Of a DNA stretch of 64,000 bases, positions 50,012 to 56,376 are shown one piece after another. How positions within the stretch are numbered: the stretch's first letter is position 1; each line of letters opens with the position of its first letter. Source of the DNA: Cytophagales bacterium (lineage in GTDB: Bacteria; Bacteroidota; Bacteroidia; Cytophagales; UBA9547); NCBI GenBank assembly GCA_044357485.1, contig JBIKPL010000001.1, forward strand, positions 2,988-66,987. Direction: 5' to 3'. Under the pieces are notes generated by a model, which worked only from the letters and a program-made list of their open reading frames with translations, was not told where the DNA came from and did not search any database. A program made the position numbers and the translations under genes.

Positions 50012-50104
50012 ATAAATTAAAATTAGACCCATAAAAAAACCTTCCCAATAGCGAGAAGGTTTTTTTATGGGTCAATATTATAAGGGCAATATTAAAAATG
50101 CCAT
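50012..50104. repeat. 93-bp direct repeat, left copy (island boundary)
   Basis: 91/93 identical to 54371-54463. Contains the hairpin at 50028-50071 and an orphan copy of the last 13 nt (..W H F stop) of the nagB-II CDS. Confidence 0.9.
50028..50071 (-). terminator. Rho-independent-type terminator hairpin (left copy), downstream of the XRE gene
   Basis: cccataaaaaaaccttc / gaaggtttttttatggg form a 17-bp perfect stem with a 10-nt loop. Confidence 0.6.
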
Positions 50105-50153: not shown

Positions 50154-50501
50154 TTACTTTTTCATTGCTATCATCAAGGCTATTTGGGCTTCAAGAGAGA
50201 CGATTAATTTGTCTTTTGATTTAATAATATCATCCAATAATGTGAAATCATTGACGGTTGAATTAAAATTGTTGCTATTGGCTGAATTATAGAAAAAGTT
50301 CTTTTTATCGAAAGCAATAATATCTTCAATGCTTATATTTAAAAAATCGGCTATGTCTTGTAGTCTAGTGAGGGTAATATCTGCTTCATCGTTTTCTAAT
50401 TTGCTATAGCTTGCTTGTGAAATCTTAAGATGCTCTGCTATGGTTTCTTGTTTAAAGCCTTTGAACTCTCTGAATTTTCTTATAGAATAGCCAACCTTCA
50501 T
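50154..50501 (-). CDS. XRE-family helix-turn-helix transcriptional regulator
   Basis: HTH_3 pattern IRKFREFKGFKQETIAEHLKISQASYSKLENDEADITLTRLQDIADFL. ATG at 50501 (MKVGYS...) is preferred over the TTG track start at 50534. Confidence 0.8.
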   Translation of the reverse strand: MKVGYSIRKFREFKGFKQETIAEHLKISQASYSKLENDEADITLTRLQDIADFLNISIEDIIAFDKKNFFYNSANSNNFNSTVNDFTLLDDIIKSKDKLIVSLEAQIALMIAMKK

Positions 50502-50548
50502 AATTGCAGTGTTTATGTTTACTTCTATTTGCAAGTTATAAATTATTC

Positions 50549-50571
50549 ATATCAGTAATATTATATCAGTA
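50549..50571. promoter_or_regulatory. Operator-like direct repeats in the XRE / PD-(D/E)XK divergent intergenic region
   Basis: atatcagta occurs at 50549-50557 and again at 50563-50571 (14-bp period). Confidence 0.25.
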
Positions 50572-50646
50572 GATATTTATTATGTTGATTTATCAAAAAG
50601 CTAGGTTTGTTTAGGGCATTTCCATTATTAATTTAAACTAAAAAAT

Positions 50647-51687
50647 ATGATTAAACCTAACATTTTTGACATTGCAACAAAAGAATTAAACCAAGATGCT
50701 TTTATTACTTGGTTGTTATTGTGGGGTGGGAATAATGAGCCTGAAACTGATGACGAAAAAAAGTTAATCCTATGCGGCAAAGAATTTACTAAGGCACTCA
50801 TCACTAAAAAATACCCGAATTTCAATGAGCCAATTGAAACTGTAGATGCTGGAAGACAATGGGATAACATTGATGTATATGCAAAAATCAATAATAAATA
50901 CTTAATTATTATTGAAGACAAAACTAATACAGGGCAACGATCGGGTCAACTTAGTAGATATAAATTAATTGCTGAAGAATGGAGAAAAAAATATGCTCCA
51001 GAATATGAAGAAGTTATTTGTATCTATCTTAAAACTGGTAATGAAACACAAGAAAGTCTTGATGTTGTAATACAAGATGGTTTTGAAATTTACAACAGAA
51101 CAGATTTTATTAACTTAGTACAACAACACGATATTCGAAATGATATTTATTCAGATTTTAAAGCCCGTCTTTTAAAGCTAGAAAGTATTAATAATGAATG
51201 GATTGATAAAGTAATTAACAATTGGAACGGTAATGATTGGCAAGGTTTTTTTCAAAACTTAGAAAAACAGAATGTGATTGATAGATGGTTTAGGGTTAAT
51301 AACCCTAATGGAGGATTTTGGGGTGCGTTGTTCGCTTGGCGTGAATACAATGGAATACCTGTTTACCTTCAAATAGAAGAAGGCAAACTATGTTTTAAAA
51401 TAAGTACTCGTACAGCTGACAGTACTAATATTCCAGAAAATCTTAATAAAAGCGAAACAAGAAATAGGTTTCATCAATTGATTTTAGAAGCTGCTTCAAA
51501 ACAAAATTTAAGCTCAATAAGAAAACCAGACAGGTTTGGTCATGGCAATTACATGACCATAGCCATTATAGATGCCAAAAATTGGCTTGGCGATCAAAGC
51601 AAAATCATCCATCAACACCAAGTCATTGAAAATCTAAATTTATACAAATCATTTATTGACGATTTTGTAACAGCTTCAAATATATAA
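50647..51687 (+). CDS. PD-(D/E)XK nuclease-superfamily protein (PF14281/PDDEXK_4-like N-terminal domain)
   Basis: 346 aa. N-terminal NIFDIATKELNQDAFITWLLLW, then NIDVYAKINNKYLIIIEDKTNT (D ... E-x-K) and QLSRY. The Trp-rich C-terminal half is of unknown type. Confidence 0.5.
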   Translation: MIKPNIFDIATKELNQDAFITWLLLWGGNNEPETDDEKKLILCGKEFTKALITKKYPNFNEPIETVDAGRQWDNIDVYAKINNKYLIIIEDKTNTGQRSGQLSRYKLIAEEWRKKYAPEYEEVICIYLKTGNETQESLDVVIQDGFEIYNRTDFINLVQQHDIRNDIYSDFKARLLKLESINNEWIDKVINNWNGNDWQGFFQNLEKQNVIDRWFRVNNPNGGFWGALFAWREYNGIPVYLQIEEGKLCFKISTRTADSTNIPENLNKSETRNRFHQLILEAASKQNLSSIRKPDRFGHGNYMTIAIIDAKNWLGDQSKIIHQHQVIENLNLYKSFIDDFVTASNI

Positions 51688-51710: not shown

Positions 51711-53069
51711 ATGAAAAAAATAATCTTTTTAGTTGTACTACTAATAGCTAGTATTACAACGTTTGCACAACGGTTTGTTACTGGTAATATTGAGTATAAT
51801 ATTATTACAGGAACGACCAATGTTGAAGTCAAATCCAAAACTCCAACTGGTATTGCCTTTATTGGATATACTGGACAGGTAATAATACCTTTAACTGTTG
51901 TAAATAATAGCATTAATTATTCAGTAACAAGTATTGGGTCGAGTGCATTTTCTAACTCTTCGGAATTAACAAGTGTAATTATTCCTAACTCAGTAACAAG
52001 TATTGGATCGTTTGCATTTGCTCGCTGTATGGGTTTAACAAATATCACTATTCCTAACTCGATAACAAGTATTGGGTCGTATGCATTTTCAGAGTGTAAG
52101 GGATTAAAAAGTATAACTATTCCTAATTCAGTAACAAATATTGCACAAAATGCATTTACAAGCTGTACAGGACTAACAAGTGTCATTATCCCTAACTCAG
52201 TAACAAGTATTGGGTCGAGTGCATTTGAAAAATGTACCAGTTTAACAAGTATTATTATTCCTAATTCAGTAACAAGTATTGGGTCGAATGCATTTGAAAA
52301 CTGTACTAGTTTAACAAGTGTCACTATTTCTAACTCGGTAACAACTATTGGAGAAAGTGTATTTCGTTTCTGTACCGGATTAACAAATGTCATTATCCCT
52401 AACTCAGTAACAAGTATTGGTATGGTGGCATTTGCTGGCTCCGGTTTAACAAGTATAACTATTCCTAATACAGTAACAAATATTGGGGGTAATGCATTTC
52501 AAGGCTGTACAGGCCTAACAAGTGTCTCTATTCCCAATTCTGTAACAATTATTGATTGGAATATATTTAATGGCTGTACAGGATTAACAAGTATCACTAT
52601 TCCTAATTCAGTAACATATATTGGTTCTAGTGCATTTAAAGGCTGTAGCGGATTAGAATCAGTAATAGTTGACTTGTCAACACCATTAACGATTTCAGAA
52701 GGCACATTTAATGGTGCTTATAGTTCTATATTATATGTACCGAAAGGCTCTAAATCAGCATATCAAGCTGCTACAGAATGGTCAAAGTTTACTAATATAG
52801 TTGAATTACCTTCAACAGGTATCGAGTCATTAATCAATTCAAATTTTAATATTTTCCCTAACCCAGTCACTGACAATGTAACCATTACATTAGAAAAAGA
52901 CGTTTCATGTATTGTATCAATTTATGATTTACAAGGAAATGTGCTTGCTACAAAATTAATTGAAGGCAATATTACCAATATTTCTACTACTAATTTGGCT
53001 AGTGGTTTGTATCAGGTAAAAATTATTTCTGATAAAGGTGTTGCGGTACAGCAGTTAGTTGTTAAATAA
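51711..53069 (+). CDS. BspA-type leucine-rich-repeat surface protein with T9SS C-terminal sorting domain
   Basis: Signal peptide, then about 14 LRR_5-type 23-aa repeats (IPNSVTSIGSxAFxxCTxLTSV). C-terminal Por_Secre_tail pattern (FNIFPNPVTDNVTI...IYDLQGNVL...LASGLYQVKI). Confidence 0.85.
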   Translation: MKKIIFLVVLLIASITTFAQRFVTGNIEYNIITGTTNVEVKSKTPTGIAFIGYTGQVIIPLTVVNNSINYSVTSIGSSAFSNSSELTSVIIPNSVTSIGSFAFARCMGLTNITIPNSITSIGSYAFSECKGLKSITIPNSVTNIAQNAFTSCTGLTSVIIPNSVTSIGSSAFEKCTSLTSIIIPNSVTSIGSNAFENCTSLTSVTISNSVTTIGESVFRFCTGLTNVIIPNSVTSIGMVAFAGSGLTSITIPNTVTNIGGNAFQGCTGLTSVSIPNSVTIIDWNIFNGCTGLTSITIPNSVTYIGSSAFKGCSGLESVIVDLSTPLTISEGTFNGAYSSILYVPKGSKSAYQAATEWSKFTNIVELPSTGIESLINSNFNIFPNPVTDNVTITLEKDVSCIVSIYDLQGNVLATKLIEGNITNISTTNLASGLYQVKIISDKGVAVQQLVVK

Positions 53070-53220
53070 AAAATATAGGCTTTTTAGCTTAATCATTGCG
53101 CTACTTTTGGTTACTGGCACCAATAAGATTACTTACTTAATGTCAAAATCACAGAACAGCTAGTTTAAAGAATTTTACATATTTGTTTCAGTGTAATATT
53201 TTAAGTAATACCATATATAA

Positions 53221-53682
53221 TTATTTAATAGTCCAATCTATATCCTTAAATATATAAGGGAAAGAGCATATACTTTGTATCATACTTTTAGAAATTAACT
53301 TTACTTCTGTTTCAATAAATATGCTTACTTCATCAAGTGTAAAATGAATTTTATTTGTAAATTTTCTTTTTAAAACTGCCCATATTTTTTCAGCCGGATT
53401 TAATTCTGGACTATAAGGTGGGAGAAAAACAAGTCCAATGTTTTCAGGAATTACCAAAGATTTTGCTTTATGAAATGCACCATTGTCTAAAACAATTATT
53501 TTAAATTCCTTAGGCCTATGTCTAGAAAACTCATCAAGATATATTTGAAATGTTCCTGCATTGCAATTAGGAAATTCTATTAAAAAGCTATCTCCATCGA
53601 TTGGAGAAAATGAACCAAACAAATAAGAACTTTTAAAAACTTGATGAAATGGACAAATCGGCTTCACACCCTTAGCAGTCAA
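53221..53682 (-). CDS. IS630 transposase orfB (DDE catalytic domain)
   Basis: DNGAFH and PYSPELNPAEKIW motifs. The frame stays open upstream of the track start through ..YFQDESRFGLF.. (first catalytic D) and overlaps the end of orfA in the -1 frame. Confidence 0.75.
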   Translation of the reverse strand: MTAKGVKPICPFHQVFKSSYLFGSFSPIDGDSFLIEFPNCNAGTFQIYLDEFSRHRPKEFKIIVLDNGAFHKAKSLVIPENIGLVFLPPYSPELNPAEKIWAVLKRKFTNKIHFTLDEVSIFIETEVKLISKSMIQSICSFPYIFKDIDWTIK

Positions 53683-53771
53683 TGATTTACCATTTCTTGT
53701 AAAAAGACCAAATCTGCTTTCATCTTGAAAATATAAATTGAAAGAATTATATTTTGGATTCGATAAAAATA

Positions 53772-54290
53772 TTATTTCTTGAATTTTTTGAGAGAAGTTT
53801 TTTTGAAAACCTCTACAGCTTGTTCATTTTTACTTACATGGCTTTTTCTTGCAACTTTAATTTTTGCACCAAAGTGTCTTTTTACATATTTCAATATAGT
53901 TATATATTTGATATTCAACGAAAACTCCGAGTTTACCCACTCCTGAAGTTCAATAAAACCACGCAGTCCATTTTGAGGGTCATTTAGCTTTTCATTTAAT
54001 TTTTTATGTACTGCTTCAGAAATAATACTTTTCTTAAACCCAATTCGACCATGAACTAAAAGTTGCTCAATGCCATAATCTGAATATATTTTACGCCATT
54101 TTACAATACTATTATGATTTATTCCGGTTTTATTAGATAAATCACGTTTTGAAATACCACCTTCTGATTCATGGTTTTTTATCTCTATTAAAATTTCAAT
54201 TCTCTTAGCTATAAGTTTTCCAGCATTTCTTTGTAATGCTTTAAGTTCTTTGATTGATTCTTTGATAGAAAGTTGATATGGTTTTGCCAT
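53772..54290 (-). CDS. IS630 transposase orfA (HTH DNA-binding part)
   Basis: 172 aa with winged-helix/HTH patterns. Ends ..FKKTSLKKFKK at A7 and A6 runs (53798-53804, 53784-53789) where a -1 shift joins orfB. Confidence 0.75.
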   Translation of the reverse strand: MAKPYQLSIKESIKELKALQRNAGKLIAKRIEILIEIKNHESEGGISKRDLSNKTGINHNSIVKWRKIYSDYGIEQLLVHGRIGFKKSIISEAVHKKLNEKLNDPQNGLRGFIELQEWVNSEFSLNIKYITILKYVKRHFGAKIKVARKSHVSKNEQAVEVFKKTSLKKFKK

Positions 54291-54370
54291 TTTATAAATA
54301 TTATATAGTCCATTGTTAATAAAAAAAATCCAATAAAAAAATATTGGACTATATATTATTTACAATTGGT

Positions 54371-54463
54371 ATAAATTAAAATTATACCCATAAAAAAACC
54401 TTCCCGATAGCGAGAAGGTTTTTTTATGGGTCAATATTATAAGGGCAATATTAAAAATGCCAT
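54371..54463. repeat. 93-bp direct repeat, right copy (island boundary; overlaps the 3' end of nagB-II)
   Basis: 91/93 identical to 50012-50104. Its last 13 nt are the final codons W-H-F-stop of CDS 54451-56376. Confidence 0.9.
54387..54430 (-). terminator. Rho-independent-type terminator hairpin of the nagB-II gene (right copy)
   Basis: Same 17-bp stem as 50028-50071, 20 nt downstream of the stop codon. Confidence 0.65.
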
Positions 54464-56376
54464 CTAACGTATGCTTCCATGGCGGCATATTCTGCTAAGC
54501 CAAGTTTGTTGTAAACTTCAGCCGTACCAGCATTTCTTACCTCAGCTCTTTGCCAAAATTCTCTACTGTCATTGCCTTGGAATACCACCCCGTCTTTTTG
54601 AGATTGGTGTTTGAAAATACCATAACGTTTTTGTAAAACTTGCTCTGGACTCATTGGGATTGACATTTCAATTTCCCAAATATCCCATTCATGCCAAGCT
54701 CCTCTATATAACCAAACCCAACAATCTTTCATGAAAGGTTCATCTTTAAGGCGCTTACATGCTTCAAAAATAGCATCTAAACAAACTTTATGCGTGCCAT
54801 GTGGGTCAGCTAAATCGCCAGCAGCATATATTTGATGTGGTTTCAGTTTACGAATCAAATCCATGGTGATTTGAATATCTTCTTCTCCTACCGGTTTTTT
54901 CTCTACAGTACCTGTTTCGTAAAACGGTAAATTCATGAAATGAGCATTTTCATCAGGAATTCCTACGTATCTACAAGTGGCTTTGGCTTCTCCTTTTCTG
55001 ATTAAACCTTTTACATAGCGAACGCTTTCTGAATCTTTCTCACCTTTTTTGGCACTTAAGAATGCTTTTGCATCCGTAAAGATTTTATTAGCCCCTGTAT
55101 TGTCTAAACCAAATTTAGTATTATAGTCACAAACAAAATCAGAGAACCTAAGCGCTTCATCATCATGTACTGCAATATTTCCAGAGGTTTGGTAACCTAC
55201 ATGAACATCATGGCCTTGCTCGTGTAAACGTAAAAATGTACCACCCATAGAGATGATGTCATCATCAGGATGTGGAGAAAATATTAATACTGTTTTTTTA
55301 ATGGGCGTAGCTCTTTCAGGACGATTAGCATCATCGGCATTGGGTTTTCCTCCTGGCCATCCTGAAATCGTATTTTGCAATTGGTTAAATACGTTGATAT
55401 TGATTTCGTAAGCGGAGCCTTTTTGTGCTACCAAATCCCCTAAACCGTTGGCAATATATTCTGCTGTAGTAAGTTTTAAAATTGGTTTATCGAGGCTTAA
55501 TGCCATCATACACACCGCTTTTTTGGTGATTTCCTTGGTCCATTCTACTGGGCCAACCAACCAAGGGGTTTTAACTTTCATTAAATCAGCCGCGGCTGTT
55601 TCATCTAAAAAGAAAGTTGTGTTTGGATGATGTTGTAAAAAAGTAGATGGGCAATGTTCGGTTACTTCACCTTCACATGCTTTTTGCACAATTTTAGCTT
55701 TGCCTGCACCCCAAGCCATCAACACTACTCTTTTGGCATTCATAATTTGGTTTACCCCAAGGGTAATAGCCAAAGTAGGTACGTTTTCTAGTGTCCCAAA
55801 ATCAGGTGTTGCATCTACACGAGTGGTATAGTTCAATGAAACCAAACGTGTTTTTGATCCAATTTGAGAACCTGGTTCATTAAAACCAATATGGCCCGTT
55901 CCGCCAATGCCTAATACTTGCAAATCTAATCCACCTAAGGCATTAATTTTAGCTTCGTAGGCTTCGCAATATGCCTGAATTTGGTCTTTTCTCAAAGTAC
56001 CATCAGGCACATTGTAGTTTTCAGGAGCAATATCCACATGGTTAAAAAGTTGCTCTTTCATAAACCTTACATAACTCTGTACAGCATCTGGCTGCATAGG
56101 GTAATATTCATCAAGGTTAAAGGTTATGACGTTTTTAAAACTAAGCCCTTCTTCTTTATGAAGTCTTATCAATTCGGCATACATTCTTTTAGGTGTATTT
56201 CCGGTAGCAAGACCTAATATGCAAGGTTTGTTTTCTGCTTGTTTTTGTTTAATCAAATCAGCAATTTCTCTCGCTACCGCTTTAGATGCTTCTAAAGGAG
56301 AAGAGAAAATTTCAGATGGAACTTTTTCAAAGTTAACCGCTACACTATTAGATTGTGTATTAACATTTTGTGCCAT
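54451..56376 (-). CDS. nagB: Glucosamine-6-phosphate deaminase, long form (NagB domain fused to LmbE/PIG-L deacetylase-like domain)
   Basis: 641 aa. N-terminal NagB/6-phosphogluconolactonase fold (ILGLATGNTP, GIGGTGHIGFNEPGS). C-terminal LmbE motif IFSPHPDDDIISMGGT. Confidence 0.85.
   Translation of the reverse strand: MAQNVNTQSNSVAVNFEKVPSEIFSSPLEASKAVAREIADLIKQKQAENKPCILGLATGNTPKRMYAELIRLHKEEGLSFKNVITFNLDEYYPMQPDAVQSYVRFMKEQLFNHVDIAPENYNVPDGTLRKDQIQAYCEAYEAKINALGGLDLQVLGIGGTGHIGFNEPGSQIGSKTRLVSLNYTTRVDATPDFGTLENVPTLAITLGVNQIMNAKRVVLMAWGAGKAKIVQKACEGEVTEHCPSTFLQHHPNTTFFLDETAAADLMKVKTPWLVGPVEWTKEITKKAVCMMALSLDKPILKLTTAEYIANGLGDLVAQKGSAYEININVFNQLQNTISGWPGGKPNADDANRPERATPIKKTVLIFSPHPDDDIISMGGTFLRLHEQGHDVHVGYQTSGNIAVHDDEALRFSDFVCDYNTKFGLDNTGANKIFTDAKAFLSAKKGEKDSESVRYVKGLIRKGEAKATCRYVGIPDENAHFMNLPFYETGTVEKKPVGEEDIQITMDLIRKLKPHQIYAAGDLADPHGTHKVCLDAIFEACKRLKDEPFMKDCWVWLYRGAWHEWDIWEIEMSIPMSPEQVLQKRYGIFKHQSQKDGVVFQGNDSREFWQRAEVRNAGTAEVYNKLGLAEYAAMEAYVRWHF

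Follow-up and report, generated by a model that had tools for sequence, protein, structure and literature searches.

Among the closest described systems to the gene considered here is PDC-S26, a phage defence candidate of one gene that was identified through guilt-by-embedding; PDC candidates were predicted from their embedding in BREX, DISARM or type I restriction-modification systems (bioRxiv 10.1101/2024.01.29.577857). Shedu SduA and enzymes of the PvuRts1I/AbaSI or Mrr type are further points of reference: each is a one-polypeptide PD-(D/E)XK cutter with an additional non-catalytic domain, and they occur without a methyltransferase partner and in defence islands, features that the gene described below shares. 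We analyzed a stretch of 64,000 nucleotides (hereafter the window) from a Cytophagales bacterium of the UBA9547 lineage (GCA_044357485.1, contig JBIKPL010000001.1, positions 2,988 to 66,987 of the forward strand). It encodes a 346-amino-acid (aa) protein of the PD-(D/E)XK nuclease type and, divergently, a 115-aa XRE-family helix-turn-helix (HTH) regulator. The divergent pair and its 145-bp spacer had been described from the letters of the window alone (the original prediction), and their coordinates proved exact. We give an even chance to the following view: the PD-(D/E)XK nuclease is a stand-alone cassette that serves defence or acts against invaders, and in this lineage it has come under the control of an XRE repressor that was acquired.

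The nuclease gene is intact, and so is its catalytic motif. The N-terminal part of the protein matched PF14281 (PDDEXK_4) over residues 5–138 with an E-value of 4.1e-8, scoring 33.8 bits where the cut-off is 22.3, which bears out the earlier assignment of this N-terminus to a PF14281-type fold; the motifs quoted at that time contain the residues conserved in 70/70 homologues. Across these 70 homologues (30–57% identity), E13, Q16, D17, D76, E90, K92, Q101, Y105, Y127, K129 and R151 are invariant, and the window nuclease retains all of these, as well as the conserved C-domain residues listed below. The whole-protein AlphaFold2 (AF2) model was of high confidence (predicted local distance difference test [pLDDT] 90.8, predicted template modelling score [pTM] 0.84). 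In this model, D76 lies on a strand comprising residues 75–81, E90 ends the strand 85–90, and K92 sits two residues beyond, and the order of the secondary-structure elements fits the restriction-endonuclease-like α-β-β-β-α-β fold. The top Foldseek matches in the PDB were weak and were almost all PD-(D/E)XK proteins, namely Card1, Cdn1, Can2, NucS/EndoMS, N.BspD6I and EcoO109I, and the viral matches included models named ‘restriction endonuclease’. Sequence searches of the PDB with the nuclease and with the A1 and A2 profiles found no relative. Homologues are already named ‘PD-(D/E)XK nuclease family protein’ by NCBI, and a precomputed PF14281 label is present on almost every one of the 120 homologues listed. 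It is credible, from its conserved residues and modeled fold, that the gene product is an active-looking Mg2+-dependent PD-(D/E)XK DNA endonuclease. We also noted that R98, the one oddity of the window protein, takes the place of the H in a T-x-Q-H-S-G-Q-L motif and adjoins the sole low-confidence loop of the model (residues 95–97).

The C-terminal half of the protein (residues 183–346), which the original prediction could not place, did not match any Pfam family or any PDB sequence, and its Foldseek comparison with the PDB returned nothing significant (best E-value 0.12). It is nevertheless well conserved among the 70 homologues, with G200, W214, F224 and G300 invariant and G222, G223, Y240, Q242, E244 and K251 nearly so. 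Modeled alone, the domain gave a pLDDT of 93.3 and an α-β4-α-β-α arrangement. A degenerate second PD-(D/E)XK domain was considered and rejected, for alignment of the N-terminal with the C-terminal profile by hhalign gave a probability of 1.8%, and no nuclease was among the Foldseek matches of the C-domain. The net charge of the domains was uninformative. With a profile of the C-domain, 815 representative clusters were retrieved at 50% identity (431 with E ≤ 1e-10), and nearly all are 330–350 aa long with the same two-domain architecture. Ten longer forms were scanned: all ten keep the C-domain, and nine also have a PDDEXK_4 match, which indicates that the nuclease core has in the C-domain a constant partner specific to this family, not a promiscuous module. 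Three of the longer variants (P0179, P0202 and P0225, 465–471 aa) place DUF6530 N-terminal of the PDDEXK_4 core and C-domain, and some others carry instead an extra C-terminal tail.

Of the 454 homologues that a word-indexed search returned, the best 120 are full length (~336–350 aa) and mostly 50–58% identical to the window nuclease. Their taxonomy is patchy. The family is carried by many Bacteroidota, by Neisseria and Moraxella, one Pasteurellaceae genome, Verrucomicrobiota, Treponema and other spirochaetes, Fibrobacter, KSB1 and one Woesearchaeota metagenome-assembled genome (MAG). Plasmid carriage was seen in 4 of 72,556 plasmids (Burkholderiaceae and Cetobacterium/Fusobacteriota), in contexts that were uninformative. 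A phage origin of the family was rejected: it has no PHROG, there were no matches in 50,697 phage genomes, and a single distant match was found in IMG/VR. The family is large, horizontally mobile and of two domains, and it behaves as a self-sufficient single-gene cassette.

The gene contexts of the homologues make a defence function credible. Hallmark defence genes lay within 10 kb in seven of ten Pfam-annotated homologue contexts, a qualitative count that agrees with the expectation in the original prediction that homologues would occur in defence islands. Kiwa and Hachiman lie directly upstream of one homologue, and a fusion of SIR2 and pAgo directly upstream of another (locus L030). Elsewhere, homologues are close to BrxC, caspase-like and DUF4384 genes, to AbiH, T5orf172, SLFN-Fic, HsdR and integrase genes, or to RT, WYL, PLD-helicase and Eco57I genes, and one lies in a NERD/UvrD island. 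In Algoriphagus, the homologue is found inside a BREX system between PglX and PglZ. A second BREX context likewise embeds its homologue between PglX and PglZ, followed by EVE-McrBC; the two have downstream neighbors in common and are probably related. Homologues inside BREX operons sit on the same strand. Pooled Pfam and PADLOC scans of 136 neighbor proteins give family counts, not per-locus defence scores.

Clustering of neighbors over 76 loci revealed no conserved partner gene, the largest neighbor cluster covering seven loci, and no methyltransferase was found to recur beside homologues. In the window itself, no methyltransferase, ATPase or antitoxin domain is present within ±10 kb according to precomputed Pfam labels, as the original prediction had stated for the immediate surroundings. 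More than 95% of the family loci lack any partner, so the enzyme on its own must do its host no harm; it follows that discrimination would be intrinsic to the enzyme, for which the conserved C-domain is the obvious candidate.

Some sub-branches of the family have recurrent neighbors of their own. A gene of 67–74 aa lies 0–72 bp upstream of the homologue, on the same strand, in L013, L063, L068, L074, L075 and L076. The L068 copy matched DUF6140 with an E-value of 1.8e-31 and for the other five the assignment comes from sequence similarity; the six loci are distant from one another, and one is from an archaeal MAG. In one sub-branch of the family, this DUF6140-like gene may thus recur as a partner. 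In L059, L062 and L071, the same upstream position is taken by a tandem Zn-ribbon protein of ~75 aa. In Neisseria (L033, L034, L037, L038, L039 and L056), the homologue occupies a fixed site between a conserved 299-aa gene and earP (PF10093 EarP match). From its sequence, read without a domain search, we take the 299-aa gene to encode an NAD(P)HX-dehydratase-like protein. The site recalls the ‘minimal mobile element’ sites of this genus, which hold exchangeable cassettes.

The XRE regulator of the window consists of an HTH domain (residues 1–68) and a C-terminal tail of ~45 aa. Its ATG start gives 115 aa, and an alternative TTG-started open reading frame (ORF) would give 126 aa. Matches to PADLOC models were weak (Control_protein, 2.9e-6; capH, 9.2e-6) compared to that of a generic HTH (1.3e-12), and its other library matches were likewise of generic repressor type. 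The protein is rare, as one other protein cluster was found, at 75% identity. It occurs with the nuclease only here and beside the closest homologue, which is 80% identical to the window nuclease (L093). At L093, the 5′ end of an XRE-like gene lies upstream of the nuclease gene and an ORF resembling a BspA-type leucine-rich-repeat (LRR) gene lies downstream. Pairing with an XRE gene as a trait of the whole family was considered and rejected, as a tblastn search with the window XRE protein against 80 loci matched its own contig alone; no XRE gene was present in the Pfam-annotated homologue contexts.

Two 9-bp direct repeats had been predicted in the spacer, and they were found there: the copies of ATATCAGTA are 14 bp apart from start to start, with a 5-bp gap. 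The L093 spacer has both repeats at the aligned positions and with the 14-bp spacing, and both copies carry the identical three substitutions, TATCAGTA having become TATAGGTT. This concerted three-substitution change argues for the repeats being putative operator sites, since it is expected of two half-sites that are read by one protein, and it is our main argument for this assignment. TAnnTTTG is the consensus of the Bacteroidota −7 promoter box, and TAGGTTTG is the sole exact match to it in the spacer. The repeats lie between this box and the XRE start, 48–70 bp from the XRE start and 76–98 bp from the nuclease start, a placement that is compatible with autoregulation by XRE together with repression of the nuclease(-LRR) transcript. 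A sigma-70 promoter scan of the spacer was set aside, as the number of sites was not above that of shuffled sequences and the consensus is unsuited to Bacteroidota. The interpretation in the original prediction stands in part, and so does the claim that XRE controls the nuclease: repressor action through the repeats is plausible, but the pairing is absent from the 80 other loci, as the tblastn search indicated. On a separate note, the spacer upstream of the 75%-identity XRE relative (L094, positions 1786–1920) contains two (T/A)ACTTGA repeats at a distance of 20 bp. Read on the sense strand of the XRE gene, they look like the TACTGATAT repeats of the window and may be a related operator with another spacing.

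The locus lies in a small inserted block, in line with the mobile setting that the original prediction had proposed. Direct repeats of 93 bp bracket a 4.27-kb block that comprises the XRE gene, the nuclease gene, a BspA-LRR gene with a type IX secretion system (T9SS) sorting domain, and an IS630-family insertion sequence (IS). The GC content of the block is 29.8%, compared to 33–35% in the flanks. The hairpin core of the 93-bp repeat was found at just two places in the window. Copy 2 consists of the last 13 nt of a nagB-like gene and a terminator hairpin, and the right end of copy 1 holds the same 13-nt remnant. Both copies thus carry the end of nagB and the terminator, from which it appears that the block was inserted and that its insertion duplicated the terminator together with the 3′ end of this gene; it is from the 93-bp repeats alone that we infer the insertion. 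The inner edge of copy 2 coincides with the IS630 end to within 1–2 nt. An empty insertion site gave no matches in two exact-pattern scans of metagenome contigs, no integrase is present near the block (precomputed Pfam labels, ±10 kb), and no tRNA gene is present at 40–64 kb of the window.

The remaining parts of the block are listed with the others in Table 1. The IS630 transposase is split into an HTH ORF (53772–54290) and a DDE_3 ORF (53221–53682), which could reflect a frameshift, a programmed frameshift or a pseudogene. Its terminal inverted repeats are imperfect, and TA is present at both flanks. The LRR gene, whose DNA contains eight copies of a 69-nt-periodic repeat, begins 23 bp downstream of the nuclease gene, and its counterpart ORF in L093 is 16 bp downstream. 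It is probably co-transcribed cargo that lies outside the conserved context of the nuclease family. We also noted that an LRR-type ORF of the same BLAST cluster follows the nuclease gene in a distant homologue (L082). The hairpin and T-run inside repeat copy 1 are likely the terminator of the XRE transcript.

Table 1. Features of the XRE-nuclease locus and its surroundings (coordinates are those of the window; L093 is the locus of the closest nuclease homologue).
Feature	Coordinates	Strand	Evidence or remarks
93-bp direct repeat copy 1, left block edge	50012..50104	.	98% identity to 54371-54463
Hairpin, 20-bp stem, then T-run, inside repeat copy 1	50026..50073	-	Terminator scan: 3 overlapping calls vs 0.6 expected
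XRE-family HTH regulator, 115 aa	50154..50501	-	HTH_3 1.3e-12, HTH_19 1.2e-10
Divergent control region, 145 bp	50502..50646	.	82% identity to L093 spacer, blocks conserved
Direct repeat 1, ATATCAGTA, putative operator half-site	50549..50557	.	L093 aligned position is TATAGGTT
Direct repeat 2, ATATCAGTA, putative operator half-site	50563..50571	.	L093 has TATAGGTT, 14-bp spacing kept
TAGGTTTG, exact TAnnTTTG match	50602..50609	+	38 nt upstream of nuclease ATG, invariant in L093
Nuclease gene, 346 aa, whole ORF	50647..51687	+	
Nuclease N-terminal PD-(D/E)XK (PDDEXK_4) domain, residues 1–182	50647..51192	+	Catalytic E13, D76, E90, K92, Q101
Nuclease family-specific C-terminal domain, residues 183–346	51193..51687	+	α-β4-α-β-α, pLDDT 93.3
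BspA-type LRR protein, signal peptide and T9SS C-terminal sorting domain	51711..53069	+	LRR_5 1.7e-92, Por_Secre_tail 2.4e-12
IS630-family IS, ~1.16 kb	53211..54369	-	DDE_3 7e-19; exact ends by eye
93-bp direct repeat copy 2, right block edge	54371..54463	.	Hairpin and last 13 nt of nagB-like gene
nagB-like gene	54451-56376	-	Stop codon inside repeat copy 2

On the reading that we give an even chance, the nuclease domain would cut phage or other invading DNA, as a form of nucleic-acid-targeting immunity. Discrimination between self and non-self would be built into the nuclease, most plausibly with the conserved aromatic and polar C-domain acting as a substrate-recognition or trigger-sensing module. 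The cassette is inserted among housekeeping genes or, more frequently, within defence islands, BREX operons included. Only in the lineage of the window, it would have acquired a divergent XRE repressor, probably one that binds the two 9-bp direct repeats between both promoters and so autoregulates its own gene and throttles the nuclease(-LRR) transcript. A bolder version, which we put forward tentatively and hold to be less probable, is that PDDEXK_4 plus C-domain proteins are a widespread and unrecognised single-protein immune nuclease with at least 815 clusters (in Bacteroidota, oral Neisseria and Capnocytophaga, spirochaetes and others), that the C-domain would be a new fold-level sensor with an undescribed principle of discrimination, and that the XRE/direct-repeat switch would be a portable element that gates the nuclease in some lineages.

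Several observations weigh against these proposals. For the nuclease, the Foldseek matches of the whole two-domain query had E-values of only 7e-3 to 5e-2 and TM scores of ~0.2, and residue 98 (50938–50940) is R in the window protein, as opposed to H in 68/70 homologues. For the defence role, no paper in the library searched takes PF14281 further than the label ‘function unknown’ that it was given in 2012, and PDC systems, PDC-S26 included, are themselves candidates by prediction. Moreover, in three of the ten annotated contexts, at many unannotated loci and in the window, the gene is solitary among housekeeping genes. For the XRE switch, the 75%-identity relative at L094 is divergent from an unrelated gene that encodes a secreted 595-aa protein, and no canonical start codon is evident in the XRE fragment at L093. 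The covariation of the repeats comes from one second locus, L093, and when this AT-rich spacer was simulated with a Markov model, a 9-mer repeated within 30 bp arose in 11% of cases (P ~0.11), so the repeat by itself is not significant. XRE dimers also usually bind inverted, not direct, repeats.

If the enzyme does act on invading DNA, it might, as the original prediction suggested for one option, be a type IV (modification-dependent) endonuclease in which the C-domain reads a modified base (hydroxymethylcytosine [hmC], glucosyl-hmC or methylated DNA) and the N-domain cuts nearby. PvuRts1I/AbaSI-type enzymes have a similar size and order, with the nuclease at the N-terminus and a putative reader at the C-terminus. 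Such an activity would explain why a methyltransferase is dispensable, in keeping with a nuclease that is solitary and without one, and the invariant aromatic residues of the C-domain are of the kind found in base-flipping pockets. The restriction-modification, BREX and McrBC neighbors also resemble those of immigration-control regions. We nevertheless regard this as unlikely, as comparisons of sequence and fold linked the protein to none of Mrr, McrBC, GmrSD, MspJI/SRA and PvuRts1I, the modeled C-domain appears to be α/β and not an SRA- or EVE-like barrel, and other partner-less defence nucleases, for example Shedu, discriminate by DNA ends or structure. A comparably small probability goes to the nuclease not serving immunity at all, but being a selfish or accessory mobile-DNA enzyme (homing-like, or a helper of island recombination or repair) that hitch-hikes in variable regions which also collect defence genes. 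The isolated insertions among housekeeping genes (at an ilv/glt locus, the Neisseria earP site, the window and others) would fit this, as would the frequent presence among the neighbors of orphan immunity or toxin cassettes and small island genes (Imm50, Imm63, Tox-URI2, DUF6140 and cREC_REC) and of IS or integrase genes and the service of PD-(D/E)XK folds in transposition and repair too. Most loci, however, lack a recognisable recombinase or terminal repeats of their own, both domains are under strong purifying selection across wide phylogenetic distances, and same-strand embedding in BREX operons is the criterion that has been used successfully to predict defence genes (bioRxiv 10.1101/2024.01.29.577857).

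The XRE gene raises two further alternatives. One is that XRE and the repeats serve mainly XRE autoregulation or control of the BspA-LRR gene, with the adjacency of the nuclease being incidental. The 23-bp distance between the nuclease stop and the LRR start, the recurrence of the XRE-nuclease-LRR trio in L093, the position of the repeats nearer the XRE start than the nuclease start, and the L094 relative, which likewise faces a secreted protein, all accord with it. We consider it rather more doubtful than the preceding two, because a transcript that starts in the spacer must cross the nuclease gene to reach the LRR gene, so that the nuclease would be co-regulated anyway, and because the conserved −7 box lies directly upstream of the nuclease. 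The other is toxin-antitoxin (TA) activity or abortive infection, whereby a labile XRE protein, as antitoxin, transcriptional repressor or both, would restrain a nuclease toxin and its loss at infection would lead to degradation of self-DNA. XRE proteins are common antitoxins, the window protein has weak NCBIfam matches to HipB, PezA and MqsA-type models, and the XRE-nuclease pairing and the repeats are kept in the 80%-identity homologue. Yet the XRE gene is missing from the 80 other family loci and from the annotated contexts, and the nuclease is evidently tolerated there without it; the two genes are divergent and do not form a co-transcribed operon, the 75%-identity XRE relative is paired with the secreted 595-aa protein, and the NCBIfam antitoxin scores are far under their cut-offs. 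Such a module is in our judgment very unlikely, the least probable of the readings considered here.

If a stand-alone defence nuclease under an acquired repressor is the correct reading, one short gene would constitute a new and very compact defence system that is common in Bacteroidota and human oral commensals and is embedded in BREX loci, and its C-domain would be a new substrate-recognition domain for nucleases. The XRE/direct-repeat module would be a simple example of how a potentially dangerous nuclease is controlled at the level of transcription after horizontal acquisition. If the role is not defence, the proteins still make up a well-defined, conserved and mobile nuclease family that current annotation labels just generically. 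We consider the significance moderate, as many similar single-gene nuclease candidates from defence islands exist.

How, then, does the locus relate to known systems? With the PF14281 superfamily, the window protein shares its N-terminal ~180 residues, which score above the gathering threshold and have the full E...D...ExK...Q constellation. PF14281 itself covers the nuclease core alone, whereas the present subfamily adds an obligatory 160-aa C-domain that is not modeled by Pfam. All 39 family members tested matched PADLOC models of PDC-S26 (best E-value 8e-13), which is likewise a single-gene PD-(D/E)XK candidate, and the two BREX contexts of the present family show the same kind of embedding by which PDC candidates were predicted. 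These matches, however, were confined to the nuclease core: residues 62–159 of the nuclease aligned to positions ~91–180 of profiles that are 397–415 positions long, and only 64–84 profile positions were aligned, well short of a full-length match. By these profile alignments, the present family is distinct from PDC-S26.

With Shedu and the type IV enzymes, similarity is limited, by sequence and structure, to the generic nuclease fold. Searches of Pfam, PADLOC, NCBIfam and the PDB gave no match to type IV families or readers (Mrr, McrBC, GmrSD, SRA/MspJI, PvuRts1I and EVE/YTH), and type IV enzymes were not among the top 50 Foldseek PDB matches of either the whole protein or the C-domain. The analogy with controller (C) proteins that the original prediction drew did not hold up, owing to the orientation of the genes, the type of operator and the missing methyltransferase. 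In common with C proteins and CapH, the locus has a small HTH_3 protein beside a nuclease and repeated candidate operators in the promoter region. C proteins, though, are encoded upstream of and co-oriented with their targets and have palindromic C-boxes, whereas the present XRE gene is divergent and is associated with direct repeats. Restriction-modification controller systems further include a methyltransferase, and CapH a CapP-like protease partner, neither of which is present at this locus, and the XRE regulator does not accompany the nuclease family as a whole. Type II TA modules, finally, are co-transcribed and conserved in their adjacency, whereas the XRE and nuclease genes described here are divergent and their adjacency is not family-wide.

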